Sequence record: OL362275.1
Length of the DNA: 39,342 nt
DNA from: Escherichia phage HC12
Strand: one strand, 5' to 3'
Positions 1 through 39,342 of the stretch are shown piece by piece. The notes under the pieces were generated by a model. That model was given only the letters and a program-made list of their open reading frames with translations. It had not been told where the DNA came from and made no database searches. The translations under genes were made by a program, and so were the position numbers. Numbering within the stretch: position 1 is the stretch's first letter; every line of letters starts with the position of its first letter.

Positions 1-208
1 TCTCACAGTTCAAGAACCTCAAGTCTCCCCATAGGCCCTCTTTCAGTCAGACTCAAGGCCCTACCCGTTACTGCTCCTTGCAGTCACAGCCAGTCTATCA
101 TAAGGTTGGACCGATGGTCAAGACGTCAGGTCAACGATAGGTCTAGGCTATGGCTTAGGGAAGGACGATAGGTAGGGACTATTGGTCTTCTTTGAGTCTC
201 TATCTGTA
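1..208. repeat. Left genome terminus; probable copy of the direct terminal repeat
   Basis: Window starts with TCTCACAGT, the left-end sequence of T7-group genomes. No ORFs. Segment ends near TTTGAGTCTCTATCTGT, resembling the T7 terminal-repeat boundary. The second copy is not at the right end of the window, so the length is unverified. Confidence 0.35.
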
Positions 209-345
209 TAACCATAAGTCACAACCATAGGTCACAGCCTACCTCTCACAACCATAAGTCATAACCTACAGTCTCACTAACCTACAGTCTCAACCATAAG
301 ACACCAACACCTACAGTCATAGACCTACAGTTAATAGACACAAGG
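209..345. repeat. Array of about 9 imperfect 13-bp direct repeats (ACCATAAGTCAC / ACCTACAGTC units)
   Basis: Tandem near-repeats visible directly. Position matches the short repeat array next to the T7 terminal repeat (concatemer junction/packaging region). Confidence 0.6.
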
Positions 346-2938: not shown

Positions 2939-5620
2939 ATGAGCGTCATCTCTATTGACAAGCACGACTTCTCTGATGTGTCGAACGCCATTGAGCCGTT
3001 TAACCTACTGGCTGACCACTACGGGCAAGACCTTGCAGTCAAACAGCTTCAGCTTGAGCACGAGGCATACACTGAAGGCGAGCGACGTTTCATCAAGAAC
3101 CTTGAGAGACAGACTGAGCGAGGGGAACTGGCAGACAATCAGGTCGCCAAGCCTTTGATGCAGACTCTGGTCCCTAAGATTGCGCAAGCCGTCATGGAGT
3201 GGCACGAAGGCCTAGACGGGAAGCTGTCAACCTCGCGTCCTAGTGTAGCGTTCACCATGTTGAGCACTGAAGAGAAGGCCGTAAAGGACCGCTCTATGCG
3301 CATCTCCTGTGAGTCCGCTGCGGTTATCATACTGAAGGTCATACTCTCCAAGCTGGTCAAGCCTGAAGGGATACCGATTACACCGATGGCCTCCGCGATA
3401 GGTCGCACACTTGAGGACGAAATCCGCTTCGGTCGCATCCGTGACAAGGAGAAAGAGCACTTCAAGAAGGCGATAGCTGATAACCTGAATAAGCGGACCG
3501 GGGCGTCATACAAGAAAGCCTACATGCAAGCGGTCGAGGCGTCCATGCTGGAGCAAGGCCAACTGGAAGATGCGTGGGGGACTTGGAGTCCTACAGAGGC
3601 TGTCCACGTTGGCATCAAGATGCTCGAGATTGTCATCCAGTCAACACAACTGGTCGAGCTTAAGCGGTACGGTGCTGGCAATGCAGCGGCTGATGTAGAG
3701 ATGGTCCACCTGTCAGACTTCTGGGTCAAGAAGATGGCACAACGAGGATTCAGCCTTGCGGGTATAGCTCCAGTCTACCAGCCTTGCGTCGTTCCACCTA
3801 AGCCGTGGACTGGTGTCGTAGGCGGTGGGTACTGGGCCAAAGGACGCAGACCATTACCACTGATTCGCTTAGGGTCTAAGTCTGCGGTAGCACGCTACGA
3901 AGACGTGTATATGCCTGAAGTCTATGACGCTGTGAACATCATTCAGAATACACCTTGGAAAGTGAACAAGAAGGTTCTGGAAGTGGTGAACATGGTCGAG
4001 AAGCTGAACAACACGCCTATTGATGACATCCCTCAGATGGAACCGCTGAAGCCTGAGGACTATGCGGGTGAGACTGAAGAAGAACTCAAGGCATGGAAGA
4101 AGGCTGCTGCTGGTATCTATCGCCGCGAGAAGGCCAGACAGTCACGAAGATTATCACTGAGCTTTATCGTTAACCAAGCAAACAAGTTCTCTCAGTTCAA
4201 GGCCATCTGGTTCCCGTACAACATGGATTGGCGAGGTCGTGTCTACGCTGTCCCGATGTTCAACCCTCAGGGTAACGACATGCAGAAGGGCCTCCTGACT
4301 CTGGCAGTCGGCAAGCCTATTGGTGCTGACGGTTTCAAATGGCTGAAGGTCCACGGTGCAAACTGTGCGGGTGTCGATAAAGTCACCTTCGATGAGCGCA
4401 TCAAGTGGGTGGAAGACAACCACGAAAACATCATGGCTGCTGCTAAGGCACCGATGGATAGTATTGAGTGGTGGGGCAAGTTAGACTCTCCGTTCTGTTT
4501 CCTTGCGTTCTGCTTCGAGTATGCTGGCGTAATGCACCACGGCCTGTCTTACTCTTGTTCGCTACCGATAGCGTTCGATGGGTCCTGCTCTGGGATTCAG
4601 CACTTCAGCGCGATGCTTCGTGACCACATCGGTGGACATGCAGTAAACCTGACGCCATCCGGTAAGGTCCAAGACATCTACCGCATCGTGTCTGACAGCA
4701 TTGAGGAGGAGCTTAAAGTCCTGCTGATTAACGGCACTAACAACGAGATGGTCACTCACGAGGATAAGAAAACTGGTGAGATTACCGAACGTATCAAGCT
4801 GGGGACACGAGAGCTGGCCCGTCAGTGGCTGACATACGGTATGTCACGCAAGGTCACTAAGCGTTCAGTCATGACTCTGGCATACGGGTCGAAAGAGTAC
4901 GGCTTCGCAGACCAAGTTTACGAGGACATCGTGATGCCAGCGATTGACTCAGGGTCTGGCGCTATGTTCACTGAACCAAGCCAAGCGTCTCGCTTCATGG
5001 CTAAGATGATTTGGGAAGCTGTGAGTGTGACCGTAGTTGCTGCGGTTGACGCGATGAAATGGCTTCAGGGTGCTGCCAAGCTGCTTGCTGCTGAAGTGAA
5101 GGACAAGAAGACTGGCGAAATCCTGAAGCCATGCCTTCCGGTACACTGGGTAACACCTGATGGTTTCCCTGTCTGGCAGGAATACCGCAAGAAGGATACC
5201 ACTCGTCTGAACCTGATGTTCTTAGGGTCATTCAACATTCAGCCTACCGTCAACAGAGGTACGAAGAAAGAGCTGGACAAGCACAAGCAGGAGTCAGGCA
5301 TTAGCCCTAACTTCGTCCACTCACAAGATGGTAGCCACCTGCGGAAGACTGTAGTCCACACTCACCGCAAGTATGGCGTGATGTCATTCGCAGTGATTCA
5401 CGATAGCTTCGGGACCATACCTGCTGACGCTGAGTATCTGTTCCGTGGTGTCCGTGAGACGATGGTCGAGACATACCGCGATAACGATGTGCTGCTTGAC
5501 TTCTACGAGCAGTTTGAATACCAGCTTCATGAAAGTCAGCGCGACAAGTTGCCTGAGCTTCCGAAGAAAGGTAAACTGAATATCGAAGACATCTTGTCTT
5601 CAGACTTTGCATTCGCTTAA
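2939..5620 (+). CDS. 1: DNA-directed RNA polymerase, single-subunit T7-type
   Basis: 893 aa, colinear with T7 RNAP. Conserved blocks WFPYNMDWRGRVYAV, FDGSCSGIQHFSAMLRD, HDSFGT and C-terminal DFAFA. Specificity-loop region reads RLNLMFLGSFNIQPT. Confidence 0.97.
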   Translation: MSVISIDKHDFSDVSNAIEPFNLLADHYGQDLAVKQLQLEHEAYTEGERRFIKNLERQTERGELADNQVAKPLMQTLVPKIAQAVMEWHEGLDGKLSTSRPSVAFTMLSTEEKAVKDRSMRISCESAAVIILKVILSKLVKPEGIPITPMASAIGRTLEDEIRFGRIRDKEKEHFKKAIADNLNKRTGASYKKAYMQAVEASMLEQGQLEDAWGTWSPTEAVHVGIKMLEIVIQSTQLVELKRYGAGNAAADVEMVHLSDFWVKKMAQRGFSLAGIAPVYQPCVVPPKPWTGVVGGGYWAKGRRPLPLIRLGSKSAVARYEDVYMPEVYDAVNIIQNTPWKVNKKVLEVVNMVEKLNNTPIDDIPQMEPLKPEDYAGETEEELKAWKKAAAGIYRREKARQSRRLSLSFIVNQANKFSQFKAIWFPYNMDWRGRVYAVPMFNPQGNDMQKGLLTLAVGKPIGADGFKWLKVHGANCAGVDKVTFDERIKWVEDNHENIMAAAKAPMDSIEWWGKLDSPFCFLAFCFEYAGVMHHGLSYSCSLPIAFDGSCSGIQHFSAMLRDHIGGHAVNLTPSGKVQDIYRIVSDSIEEELKVLLINGTNNEMVTHEDKKTGEITERIKLGTRELARQWLTYGMSRKVTKRSVMTLAYGSKEYGFADQVYEDIVMPAIDSGSGAMFTEPSQASRFMAKMIWEAVSVTVVAAVDAMKWLQGAAKLLAAEVKDKKTGEILKPCLPVHWVTPDGFPVWQEYRKKDTTRLNLMFLGSFNIQPTVNRGTKKELDKHKQESGISPNFVHSQDGSHLRKTVVHTHRKYGVMSFAVIHDSFGTIPADAEYLFRGVRETMVETYRDNDVLLDFYEQFEYQLHESQRDKLPELPKKGKLNIEDILSSDFAFA

Positions 5621-17006: not shown

Positions 17007-17080
17007 TTTACTGGGCCGGACTTCTGGCCCTTTACTGCATGTACAAGTGGTTCGGGTCAAACAACCGTCCTAAACACTGA
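17003..17080 (+). CDS. Hypothetical small hydrophobic peptide (25 aa, GTG start overlapping the gene 6 stop)
   Basis: Hand translation (M)IYWAGLLALYCMYKWFGSNNRPKH. Speculative. Confidence 0.2.
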   Translation: MIYWAGLLALYCMYKWFGSNNRPKH

Positions 17081-17132
17081 GTCTAACCGATAGTCATATC
17101 CTATCAATCCAACAGTCATCCATAGGTGAAAC

Positions 17133-17155
17133 ACTAAACTATCACTATAGGGACT
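17133..17155 (+). promoter_or_regulatory. Phage RNA polymerase promoter (phi6.5-like)
   Basis: CACTAAACTATCACTATAGGGAC, +1 G at 17150. Confidence 0.7.
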
Positions 17156-17216
17156 TTATGACCTAAGATATGACTATAAGATATACTTTAGTCTTAACTT
17201 AAAGAGGAGATTCAAG

Positions 17217-17489
17217 ATGGCGATTAATGCTATTGAAAACGTTGTTAAGCAGTTACAGGAAGAAAGACTTGATGTCCCGAACATCTCACAGTCTGCCATC
17301 CAGTTCCTGCACGTATTGTTCAACGCAAGCTACGCTGAGAAGATGGGCGTTATCAGTCTCCTCAAGCAGCAAGGCTACAGCGATGCGTTCATTGCCGGGT
17401 TCATCAAGGGTCTCCAGTATTGCTCTGACACTCTCGACTCTGCGGTTGCTATGCGTCGTGAGCTGAAAGATACCGTTCAGTTTGATTAA
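17217..17489 (+). CDS. Hypothetical protein (gene 6.5 position)
   Basis: RBS AGAGGAG. 90-aa ORF directly after the promoter. Confidence 0.65.
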   Translation: MAINAIENVVKQLQEERLDVPNISQSAIQFLHVLFNASYAEKMGVISLLKQQGYSDAFIAGFIKGLQYCSDTLDSAVAMRRELKDTVQFD

Positions 17490-36440: not shown

Positions 36441-36890
36441 ATGCTCGAATTTTTAAAGAGAGCGGCTCCGTGGTTACTTGCAGCAGTGATGTTTGCTGGT
36501 GGCTACCACACCGCTAACAATAAGTGGGAGGCTAAGGTCAATGCAGAATACACCTCGAATCTTAAGGCATCGGAAGATACAAGGCTTGCTGTCCAAGCTG
36601 AAGTCAACAAAGTGTCCAAACGGTTTCAGGACGAAATGTCCTCGCTGGAAGGCAGCACTGATAGGATTATTGCTGACCTTCAGTCTGACAATAAGCGGTT
36701 GCGCATCCGAGTCAAACCAACGAGTGGAACCACGCAAAGTGACGGTCGATGCTTCATTGATGGTTACGCCGAACTTGACGAACGAGATGCTAAACGTCTT
36801 ATCGCCATCGGAGTGAAAGGAGACAAGTGGATTAAGGCCCTTCAAGACACTGTGAGAGCCTTACAGCAAGAGAAGGAGGTGACGCATTGA
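36441..36890 (+). CDS. 18.5: Rz-like i-spanin
   Basis: 149 aa, N-terminal TM segment; MLEFL..., [53 protein letters not shown] align with T7 gp18.5. Confidence 0.9.
36541..36816 (+). CDS. 18.7: Rz1-like o-spanin lipoprotein embedded in the +1 frame of Rz
   Basis: Embedded +1-frame ORF with hydrophobic stretch [13 protein letters not shown] followed by lipobox ISGC. ATG 36541 has a GGAGG RBS but gives a 53-residue pre-Cys leader; true start uncertain. Confidence 0.5.
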   Translation: MQNTPRILRHRKIQGLLSKLKSTKCPNGFRTKCPRWKAALIGLLLTFSLTISGCASESNQRVEPRKVTVDASLMVTPNLTNEMLNVLSPSE

Positions 36891-38650
36891 GTAAAGACTT
36901 AGTGGCGCGTCAGGCGCTAATGACTGCACGTATGAAGTCAGACTTCGTGTTCTTCCTGTTCGTCCTGTGGAAAGCTCTGTCGCTCCCAGTCCCGACTCGC
37001 TGTCAGATTGACATGGCGAAGAAACTATCGGCTGGGGACAACAGGCGCTTCATCCTACAGGCGTTCCGTGGTATAGGGAAGTCCTTCATTACGTGTGCCT
37101 TCGTTGTCTGGAAGCTATGGAACAACCCAGACTTGAAGTTCATGATTGTGTCGGCCTCAAAGGAGCGAGCCGATGCTAACTCCATCTTCATCAAGCGAAT
37201 CATCGACCTCATGCCTCAGCTTCAGGAACTCAAACCTAAGCAGGGACAGCGAGATGCGGTTATTAGCTTCGACGTGGGACCTGCCAAGCCAGACCACTCA
37301 CCTTCGGTTAAGTCCGTTGGTATCACTGGTCAGTTGACTGGTAGTCGTGCTGACATCCTGATTGCCGATGACGTGGAGGTTCCGAACAACTCAGCGACTC
37401 AGGCTGCACGAGACCGTCTATCAGAGCTTGTGAAAGAGTTCGACGCTATCCTGAAGCCGGGAGGTACGATCATCTATCTGGGTACTCCTCAGAACGAGAT
37501 GACCCTGTACCGTGAGCTGGAAGGTCGTGGGTACACCACTACTATCTGGCCCGCTCGTTATCCACGCGACAGGAAGGACTGGCAGTCTTACGGCGACCGT
37601 CTGGCTCCTATGCTTCAGGAAGAGCTGGAAGAGGACCCTGAGTCCTTCTACTGGCGTCCGACTGATGAAGTACGCTTCGATGATACGGACCTGAAGGAAC
37701 GTGAGCTGTCCTACGGTAAAGCTGGCTTCGCTCTACAGTTCATGCTTAACCCGAACCTGAGTGATGCCGAGAAGTACCCTCTTAAGCTCCGTGACCTTAT
37801 CGTAGCCGACTTGGACCCAGCGTCCAGCCCAATGGTCTACCAATGGTTGCCGAACCCTCAGAACAAGCGTGAGGACGTTCCTAACGTTGGACTCATGGGT
37901 GACTCGTACCACACGTATCAGACTGTAGGTTCTGCCTTCAGCTCATACACCCAGAAGATTCTGGTCATTGACCCTAGTGGTCGTGGTAAGGATGAGACTG
38001 GTTATGCGGTACTGTACCAGCTCAACGGCTACATCTTCGCTATGGAAGTTGGTGGTATGCGTGGTGGGTATGAAGACTCTACGCTGGAAGCACTGGCTAA
38101 GATTGGCCGTAAGTGGAAGGTCAACGAATACGTCATTGAGGGTAACTTCGGTGATGGTATGTACCTTGAGCTATTCAAGCCTGTAGCGGCCCGTATACAT
38201 CCTGCTGCTGTAACTGAAGTGAAGAGTAAGGGTCAGAAAGAACTCCGCATCTGTGACGTTCTGGAGCCTATCATGGGGTCTCACCGACTTATCATCAACG
38301 CTGCTGCTATCGTCCAAGACTACCAGTCGGCCTCTGATAAGGATGGTGTTCGTAACCCTATCTACTCTCTCTTCTACCAGATGACACGTATCTCTCGTGA
38401 ACGTGGAGCCTTGGCACACGATGACCGACTTGATGCGCTGGCTATCGGTGTACAGTTCTTCGTTGAGTCTATGGCTAAGGATGCCAACAAAGGCGAACGT
38501 GAAGTCACTGAGGAGTGGCTGGAGGAACAGATGGAGAACCCACGAAAAGGCTTCGAGTCCATCCACACTGAGTTCTGGGACAATGGGGTCCGGGTAACTC
38601 ACGATACGGACGACGAGCTGGGACTAGGGTCATACGTTACGTTCCACTAG
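36887..38650 (+). CDS. 19: Terminase large subunit
   Basis: 587 aa, colinear with T7 gp19: [109 protein letters not shown] start with AAGGAGGT RBS. Confidence 0.97.
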
Positions 38651-38744
38651 CTGAATGAATAACTATAGGCGAAAACTGAGTTAATAAGCAGTTAGTAACC
38701 TATAGTTACTACCAGTCTAACCTACTGTTTTACAAGGAGTTTGG

Positions 38745-38767
38745 ACTTAACTATCACTATAGGGAAG
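38745..38767 (+). promoter_or_regulatory. Phage RNA polymerase promoter near the right end (phiOR-like)
   Basis: ACTTAACTATCACTATAGGGAAG, +1 G at 38762. Followed by AT-rich sequence with CTATAG-containing repeats. Confidence 0.7.
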
Positions 38768-38946
38768 ACCCCCGGTTACTTATAGTATTACTATAGTGAA
38801 TATACATATGCAGACTTTATGCAAGACCTTAGGAGGCAGACTCCGAGTTCTTACCTAAGGCTTGCACCGATGGGAGGAGGTGATATTAATCATAATACCT
38901 CCAATACAGATAGTCACAGACCATAGATACAGGAGGTATGTAGCAT

Positions 38947-39105
38947 ATGGCAAAGACCAAAGCTGTACTTAAAGCTCTGGCGACCAATCGAGCTACATAC
39001 AGGTTTCTTGCTGCTGTTCTACTTGCTGCTGGCTCTACTGCTGGAAGTCAGTGGGTTGGGTGGGTCGAGACTCTCGTATGTTCTCTGGTGTCTGAGTGTC
39101 GTTAA
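38947..39105 (+). CDS. Hypothetical small membrane protein (gene 19.5 position)
   Basis: AGGAGG RBS. Hand-translated 52-aa ORF MAKTKAVLKALATNRATYRFLAAVLLAAGSTAGSQWVGWVETLVCSLVSECR with a hydrophobic core. Confidence 0.5.
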   Translation: MAKTKAVLKALATNRATYRFLAAVLLAAGSTAGSQWVGWVETLVCSLVSECR

Positions 39106-39136
39106 CGCCGTAATGGTAACAATCAACGAAAGTAAG

Positions 39137-39180
39137 ACCTAAGGTCAGTTCATAGCTGACGCTACTCTACTGACCTTAGC
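39137..39180. repeat. Inverted repeat CTAAGGTCAGT / ACTGACCTTAG (11 bp arms, 19-nt spacer) near the right end
   Basis: Exact reverse-complement arms in the sequence; non-coding right-end region. Confidence 0.5.
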
Positions 39181-39265
39181 TACTGTAGTCAAGGACTTTA
39201 GGTAACACCTTAATAGAAGCTCACTTAGGGTCATCCTACTTATTGGTCTATCCTAGTGTCGCCTG

Positions 39266-39310
39266 ACCTACGGTCCTTGACCTACAGTGGCTGTGGCCTA
39301 CAGTAGTGAC
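39266..39310. repeat. Short direct repeats of CCTACAGT-type units at the right end
   Basis: CCTACGGTCC, GACCTACAGTGG, GGCCTACAGTAGTGAC; same unit family as the left-end array at 209-345. Confidence 0.5.
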
Positions 39311-39342
39311 GATGAGTTTTGGACCAAAAGTTTGAGACCACA

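Follow-up and report, generated by a model that had tools for sequence, protein, structure and literature searches.

A probable T7-type right-end control region in the K1F-like Escherichia phage HC12, recorded with one copy of the terminal repeat

Several functions have been ascribed to the right end of the phage T7 genome. phiOR and phi6.5 are named as the secondary replication origins of T7 (PMC8373140). The short protein gp19.5 is predicted to span the membrane, is non-essential and is perhaps holin-like, and substitutions in gene 19.5 alter the timing of lysis (PMC2680503). Concatemers are not processed normally unless a hairpin near gene 19.5 is present (Kim et al., 1997, as cited in PMC2680503), and the summary given in that source attributes late lysis, small plaques and concatemer-processing defects to deletion of this M-hairpin (Kim and Chung, 1996; Kim et al., 1997, in PMC2680503). 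Recognition of the pac elements falls to gp18 and their cutting to gp19 (PMC9860248), and polymerase pausing and the terminase have been described for T7 (PMC3276506; bioRxiv 10.1101/2021.01.11.426313). Each concatemer junction holds one terminal repeat, and the repeat is often lost in assemblies of T7-like genomes (PMC10438801). Closer to the DNA considered here, the repeats of phages SH3 and SH5 measure 183 and 190 bp, as found by sequencing straight from phage DNA with primers set close to where the ends were predicted, and that of K1F is given as 179 bp (PMC4925675). Here we analyse positions 38651-39342 (692 nt) of Escherichia phage HC12 (OL362275.1), that is, the stretch between the terminase gene and the right end of the 39342-nt sequence, which as a whole is called the window.

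With a probability of roughly 0.88, this stretch is in our reading the conserved control region at the right end of a Kayfunavirus genome (K1F-like, T7 group), of whose direct terminal repeat of about 200 bp the deposit or assembly kept the left copy only. The region matched 221 phage records in a megablast search, mostly from Kayfunavirus (Autographiviridae, Studiervirinae), 198 of which extend over 80% or more of it; the picture was unchanged in a more sensitive search. The top matches were Escherichia phages HC13 and 6925 with 99.6% identity, K1F followed with 97.4% at a query coverage of 100%, and K1F (AM084414, DQ111067), HC13, 6925, SH3 and LM33_P1 together span 97-99.6% nucleotide identity over the region. 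The left 900 bases of the window are matched by known records at no more than about 97%. Judged by these comparisons, the window is a K1F-like genome that is identical to no record in the collection and whose right end holds nothing unusual.

One line of evidence is the exact position of the junction. It had been remarked from the letters of the DNA alone that no second copy of the left terminal sequence is included, and comparison of the two ends confirmed this, as window positions 1-210 find no second match anywhere in the window. The unique sequence ends with base 39342. What follows it in K1F, SH3, SH5 and 16 IMG/VR contigs begins TCTCACAGTT, the sequence found from window base 1 on. K1F reads ...GAGACCACA followed by TCTCACAGTT... 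at this point or, in a longer excerpt, ...GTTTGAGACCACA and then directly TCTCACAGTTCAAGAACCTCAAGTCT... from window base 1 on, and its record ends 178 nt later. The ends are accordingly predicted at ...GACCACA followed by TCTCACAG..., and the records of SH3 and SH5 annotate a 'short direct terminal repeat' from exactly the equivalent of window base 1. The IMG/VR contigs had been found by a 19-mer from the junction-proximal block (n = 16). All 16 continue into the repeat, and nine of them stop 182-226 nt past the 19-mer, which is the end of the right repeat copy and about three bases over the copy length. In rearranged assemblies, moreover, the right end is joined to ATCTGTAT and the left-end array by one repeat copy, as in a concatemer junction. 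As for the other end of the repeat, alignment with K1F places it at window position 200 and the annotated SH3 repeat at 205. On this sequence evidence, the window represents one unit genome with a single repeat copy, the second copy being supplied by analogy with relatives whose ends were mapped. With one copy in the record, the true virion genome would exceed the 39342 bases by about 200 bp. The exact junction matters for annotation, for phage rebooting and engineering, and for the design of packaging-signal plasmids. A separate observation concerns the body of the repeat, which carries a 24-nt insertion (GTTACTGCTCCTTGCAGTCACAGC) at about 67-90 that occurs in no fetched Kayfunavirus locus with a repeat, nor elsewhere in the window.

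The second line of evidence is the arrangement of the region. The original prediction had likened it to the part of T7 that holds a secondary origin and packaging signals, and element order, spacing, the gp19.5 protein family and the T7 literature all agree with this. In the window, T7 (nt 39130-39937), T3 and K11, the same elements follow one another: the gene 19 stop, phiOR, an AT-rich block, a leader hairpin, gene 19.5, a hairpin, short repeats and the terminal repeat. From the gene 19 stop to the promoter +1 we count 112 nt in the window and 99 nt in T7, from there to the start codon of the small gene 185 and 160 nt, from the stop of the small gene to the hairpin centre 54 and 50 nt, and from the hairpin centre to the terminal repeat 184 and 190 nt, respectively.

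Four points weigh against so close an equation with T7. Global DNA alignment with T7 39127-39777 gave scattered identity with mis-aligned promoters, the region being essentially unalignable, so that the comparison rests on element order, spacing and protein family. Besides, the hairpins differ in build: that of T7 has imperfect arms of 19 nt and a 3-nt loop, and the hairpins of T3 and K11 are of this T7 type (AGGGATTC...ATCCCT), whereas the window has 11-bp arms of 100% complementarity around a loop of 19 nt. As sequence similarity to the T7 M-hairpin is lacking, the window hairpin is a positional analogue rather than a demonstrable homologue. Its arms (39136-39149 and 39169-39182) are furthermore invariant in 25 of 25 Kayfunavirus relatives, with seven loop variants of 19-23 nt, and covariation thus cannot tell selection on structure from selection on sequence, nor action in DNA from action in RNA. 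Lastly, the site behind the repeat reads ATCTGTA(T) and not ATCTGTT, a 6/7 match to the T7 core. T7 carries ATCTGTT at 161-167, K11 likewise has ATCTGTT at this place and annotates CTATCTGTT as 'concatemeric junction', and ATCTGTAT itself is present in seven of nine relatives, namely all those whose records pass the repeat, while the records of K1F, SH3 and SH5 stop within it. Any base change has been reported to abolish the class II termination signal for T7 polymerase (bioRxiv 10.1101/2021.01.11.426313); with ATCTGTA in place of ATCTGTT, pausing at this site is therefore unproven. The one-base difference may reflect another pause specificity of the K1F-type polymerase. The coordinates of all features are collected in Table 1.

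Table 1. Features of the HC12 right end, of its left boundary and of the matching left end of the window
Feature	Position	Strand	Basis
Gene 19, terminase large subunit, left boundary of the region	36887-38650	+	Pfam Terminase-T7_RNaseH-like, E = 6.2e-38
Stem-loop 3' of the gene 19 stop	38660-38708	+	Arms of 10 nt, 100% complementary; compensatory changes
Phage RNA polymerase promoter, phiOR equivalent (-17 to +6, +1 at 38762)	38745-38767	+	Nine-site consensus of the genome itself
AT-rich block 3' of the promoter, candidate secondary replication origin	38768-38832	+	GC 0.35; position in T7
Leader hairpin of the small open reading frame, arms GGAGGT / ACCTCC	38876-38902	+	Minimum-free-energy fold of the predicted phiOR transcript
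Homologue of T7 gene 19.5, 52 aa, possibly membrane-spanning	38947-39105	+	phrog_2193
Inverted repeat/hairpin, positional equivalent of the T7 M-hairpin	39136-39182		Perfect arms 39139-39149 / 39169-39179
Second, long imperfect inverted repeat	39178-39203 vs 39266-39292		16 nt at 88% and 11 nt at 91%
Right-end short repeats, three TGACCTACGGT-type units, spacing 14 and 16 nt	39264-39304	+	Repeat search
Conserved junction-proximal block GACGATGAGTTTTGGACCAAAAGTTTGAGACCACA	39306-39342	+	28/37 columns invariant in 9 relatives
Single copy of the direct terminal repeat, end uncertain (200-205)	1-201	+	Alignment with K1F and SH3 repeats
ATCTGTAT directly after the repeat, at the position of the T7 class II pause site	202-209	+	Alignment with relatives, T7 and K11
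Left-end short-repeat array, AACCATAAGTC and ACCTACAGT units, counterpart of the right-end repeats	210-340	+	Repeat search

The hairpin admits more than one mode of action. An 11-bp inverted repeat had been proposed at 39137-39180 and was located there with perfect arms. By itself, a repeat of this length is modestly unusual, since 4 of 300 shuffles also reached 11 bp. The hairpin folds with -11.2 kcal/mol (z = -2.35) as DNA and with -22.6 kcal/mol (z = -2.73) as RNA. The inverted repeats of T7, T3 and K11 are centred 41-50 nt past the stops of their small genes, compared with 54 nt in the window. We also considered a fixed 'ruler' distance between hairpin and terminal repeat, given values of 183.5 nt in the window, 184 nt in T3 and 190 nt in T7. 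This idea was rejected, because the distance is 145 nt in K11, about 108 nt in gh-1 and 159.5-193.5 nt in some Kayfunavirus genomes.

Instead of serving DNA processing, the hairpin might act in RNA, either as an RNase III site or as a hairpin that stabilises the 3' end of the phiOR/gene 19.5 transcript. It forms a good RNA fold, it lies inside the phiOR transcription unit, and its counterpart in Pseudomonas phage gh-1 is annotated as the putative RNase III site R13. Nevertheless, it is followed by no U-tract, an intrinsic-terminator scan of the region returned no terminator-like site, and an Rfam scan of the region gave no match at E ≤ 1. Moreover, a stem of 11 + 4 bp is short for RNase III, and in T7 the counterpart region affects concatemer processing (PMC2680503). 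RNA and DNA roles could also coexist. Taken together, we hold a role in RNA instead of DNA processing to be unlikely, and favour the hairpin as the positional counterpart of the T7 M-hairpin.

The short repeats offer another way of looking at the hairpin. Right-end repeats matching an array at the left end had been predicted and were indeed recovered, with ACCTACAGT-type units at both ends: ACCTACGGT at 39266, ACCTACAGT at 39280 and GCCTACAGT at 39296 on the right, and four exact copies of ACCTACAGT within 264-331 on the left. The best similarity between the ends is a common 23-nt block of two units (39266-39288 vs 309-331). In T7, the terminal repeat is flanked on either side by CCTAAAG/CCTAAGG repeats; the window unit is ACCTACAGT, not CCTAAAG. 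We further note that ACCTACAGT with at most one mismatch is enriched throughout the genome: away from the end regions, about 11 matches would be expected and about 27 are present. The DNA fold of 39106-39342 (z = -3.21) contains the long imperfect inverted repeat, the arms of which are the short-repeat motif in opposite orientations and are both highly conserved. The arms of the perfect hairpin, GACCTAAGGTCAG and CTGACCTTAG, contain the same 9-11-nt motif as the short repeats that flank the terminal repeat. It is thus tempting to speculate, though we would give the idea rather low odds, that one phage protein, e.g., the small terminase gp18, recognises the hairpin and the short repeats as a common array. 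If so, binding to the array together with DNA bending or extrusion would couple junction cutting to repeat duplication. To our knowledge, the role of such short repeats has not been established even in T7.

Between promoter and hairpin lies the small open reading frame (ORF). The original prediction had called it a 52-aa membrane ORF. The ORF stands, with a ribosome-binding site (AGGAGGT, 38932-38938) 8 nt 5' of its ATG, but the membrane label is only marginal. An uncharged stretch of 21 residues (F20-V40) lies between R19 and E41, and the Kyte-Doolittle maximum over 19 residues is 1.25, versus 1.59 for T7 gp19.5; TMHMM predicts that T7 gp19.5 and the CR8 homologue span the membrane. A membrane location is accordingly worded here as plausible but marginal, as judged from hydropathy. 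The family assignment is firmer. The protein matches phrog_2193 with E = 1.6e-23, and T7 gp19.5 matches the same family with E = 4.5e-25; in BLASTP, the two proteins meet at E = 3e-5 in a common TYRFL...VCS core. Residue 30 is Ser in the window and Val in the relatives, and the K1F annotation names the small gene gp19.4.

Might the ORF be no real gene at all, conserved merely through overlapping DNA or RNA signals? The surrounding non-coding sequence is nearly as conserved as the ORF itself, and the variable columns fall on the three codon positions as 8, 5 and 12, which is a weak third-position excess. In addition, Pfam DUF5465 (PF17553), which T7 gp19.5 matches with E = 6.5e-11, gave no match to the 52-aa protein even at E ≤ 1; one relative's record (H8) is nevertheless annotated as DUF5465. 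Against this stand the strong and correctly spaced ribosome-binding site, the PHROG family shared with T7 gp19.5, and the integrity of the ORF in 10 of 10 aligned genomes, where the single 3-nt insertion, in K1F, is in frame. In T7, moreover, substitutions in the gene change lysis timing (PMC2680503). We therefore regard the absence of a gene here as very unlikely, and take the ORF to be a gene 19.5 homologue.

The leader of this gene contains a predicted hairpin of its own. In relatives, its arms appear in the same place as GGAGGG/CCCTCC or GAGGGT/ACCCTC with the pairing kept, and T7, T3 and K11 have hairpins of the GGTGAT...ATCACC type at this position. RNAalifold did not recover the GGAGGT/ACCTCC stem in the consensus fold of the gene 19.5 leader, as an alignment gap shifts the register. 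With this miss, and with the variants read directly, the formal support for covariation is weaker in the leader stem than in the stem-loop after gene 19 described below. The left arm resembles a Shine-Dalgarno sequence and the right arm an anti-Shine-Dalgarno sequence. The right arm could pair instead with the true ribosome-binding site 32 nt downstream, which suggests that the leader hairpin may be a translational switch of the small gene.

On the other side of the small gene, between it and the perfect hairpin, positions 39132/39133 mark an insertion hot spot at which the window has no insert. K1F carries 75 bp there with a 22-aa mini-ORF (2993-3061 of the locus fetched as L001), in SH5 (L008) the insert holds an ORF of about 37 aa with a hydrophobic product (MDKDLLALAVVVSGLVISIVGLIIMDK...), and shorter inserts are present in IME278 and EcpYZU01 (L011 and L012), each with its own GGAGG.

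Upstream of the gene, the original prediction had placed a phiOR-like promoter at 38745, and such a promoter is present there (TTAACTATCACTATAGGGAAGA) as one of nine window sites that share ...CTATCACTATAGG and the consensus aCTaAACTATCACTATAGG. Their +1 positions are 2864, 6185, 7872, 17150, 19988, 21023, 25805, 33513 and 38762. The core CACTATAGGGA, with at most one mismatch allowed, is found seven times in the window against 0.54 expected. The right-end promoter is 97% identical on average over nine relatives, and phiOR is annotated at the same place in T7, T3 and K11. A promoter scan also returned three sigma-70-like matches, all weak (9/12). At the left end, no full phage-type promoter that could be the phiOL equivalent was seen in 430-480, and a CTATAG at 447 sits inside a sigma-70-type promoter (TTGACT, 17 nt, TAATAG), like T7 A1.

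CTATAG also occurs around the promoter. AT-rich sequence with several CTATAG repeats had been described here, and this description stood in part: the GC content is low and four copies (38663, 38700, 38757, 38791) are present, out of 22 genome-wide where 8.4 are expected, but the copies do not belong to one repeat family. By position and comparison, two of them lie in the arms of a stem-loop, that at 38757 belongs to the promoter, and that at 38791 is missing from most relatives. The 30-mer quoted in support of the repeats lies at 38776-38805. Within it, TTATAG at 38780 is conserved among relatives; CTATAG at 38791 reads CTGTAG in six of nine aligned relatives and CATAG in EcpYZU01, and is unrecognisable in SH5 and IME278. 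Pairing of the promoter core TCACTATAG (38754-38762) with CTATAGTGA (38791-38799) was tried as a conserved structure and discarded, as the second arm is absent in SH5, IME278 and T7.

The stem-loop directly after gene 19 accounts for the first two copies. It starts 10 nt past the gene 19 stop, and its outer arms (38660-38669 and 38699-38708) enclose an inner stem (38674-38678 with 38689-38693). Not a single outer pair is broken over 13 distinct variants from relatives. In the SH5/IME278 lineage, five pairs are changed on both sides, so that CTATAG is lost and the pairing is kept, and at three more pairs a single transition yields G-U. That G-U is tolerated speaks for a structure formed in the + strand RNA, and the stem-loop is probably a 3'-end or stability element of gene 19 transcripts. 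Small hairpins directly after gene 19 exist in T7, T3 and K11 as well. Short 'unknown' CDS have been annotated over the stem-loop and promoter region in K1F DQ111067 (2530-2634 of L002) and ST11 (630-746 of L014); with a conserved RNA structure and a promoter in this place, such gene calls are probably spurious.

The stem-loop also bears on the notion that the phage RNA polymerase binds the CTATAG sequences as additional or decoy sites, gathered at the right end. Four copies in 692 nt are far over expectation, and the copy at 38786-38800 (TATTACTATAGTGAA) is like the promoter core at 13 of 15 positions. Yet the copies at 38663 and 38700 form the two arms of one stem-loop, which in the SH5/IME278 lineage become TACCTACGCA and TGCGTTAGGTA, with CTATAG gone and pairing kept, the 38791 copy is mostly changed or unrecognisable in the nine aligned relatives, and the full -17 to +6 consensus is matched by 38745-38767 only. 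Decoy sites are hence highly improbable in our view, and we assign two seemingly promoter-like CTATAG copies to a conserved RNA stem-loop instead.

The low GC content singles out this part of the genome. The 180 nt at 38640-38819 contain 35.6% GC against a genome mean of 50.1%, which places them in the lowest 0.2% of 180-nt windows. Such windows with GC ≤ 0.37 occur at two places of the genome only, 38623-38840 and 17031-17309. The latter lies around the promoter whose +1 is 17150, in the interval from gene 6 (exonuclease) to gene 6.5, and would be the equivalent of the T7 phi6.5 secondary origin. The two most AT-rich stretches thus coincide with the equivalents of the T7 secondary origins, which supports the origin reading of the right-end block. 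The block behind the HC12 phiOR, which includes the TTATAG and CTATAG string of 38776-38805, is 93% identical on average in the relatives, and T7 has an equivalent AT-rich stretch after phiOR; from composition and position, the block is a candidate secondary origin. As a further observation, the sequence after the promoter within 17031-17309 shares GACTTTATG and GACCT(A/T)AG motifs with the phiOR block.

At the far right, the strongly conserved block next to the junction is probably part of the site of terminase recognition and cleavage. At the left boundary of the region, the counterparts of the gene 19 product in HC13, SH3 and K1F carry the name terminase or maturation protein in their annotations. 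That the genome is circularly permuted or headful-packaged and the window ends are arbitrary assembly break-points is scarcely credible: many related records are rearranged, with the region internal (e.g., H5-H9), but the window is bounded by the exact bases of the mapped SH3/SH5 repeat and of the K1F repeat, the junction sequence is nearly invariant, and the terminase is of the T7 type.

From these elements and the T7 precedent, we infer the following course of events. Late transcripts ending past gene 19 would carry the 3' stem-loop. The phage RNA polymerase would start at the phiOR-type promoter (+1 38762), and its transcript may open the AT-rich DNA and prime replication, making the block a secondary origin. 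The same transcript would have a structured leader and encode the 52-aa gp19.5 homologue. In concatemers, transcription would cross the single junction repeat to ATCTGTAT, where T7 polymerase pauses and helps to recruit the terminase (gp18 and gp19), and the HC12 polymerase might do likewise. The terminase would recognise the repeat-adjacent sequence 39306-39342 and perhaps the short repeats. Finally, the hairpin (39139-39179) may help to process concatemers and to duplicate the terminal repeat, like the T7 M-hairpin.

Compared with known systems, HC12 differs from T7 in its promoter, CGACTCACTATAGG in T7 and CTATCACTATAGG in the window, so that the specificity differs, whereas the T7 terminal repeat, like that of the window, begins TCTCACAGT, and an ATCTGT-type site follows the repeat in both. 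T3 (Teetrevirus) and K11 (Przondovirus) have phiOR, gene 19.5 and the terminal repeat annotated in the same order. The T3 repeat begins TCTCATAGTTCAAGAACC, very like that of the window, and the hairpin-to-repeat distances of T3 and K11 given above show that this spacing is not fixed. K1F and its relatives have the same promoter, gp19.4/19.5 ORF, hairpin, short repeats and junction sequence as the window. The K1F promoter start reads GGAAGA and that of the window GGGAAGA, and the K1F records include the right repeat copy that the window lacks. The findings leave the current understanding of T7-group biology unchanged and are mainly of practical value: the right end of HC12 is a known one, standard among the widely sequenced K1F-like phages and built like the well-studied right end of T7.

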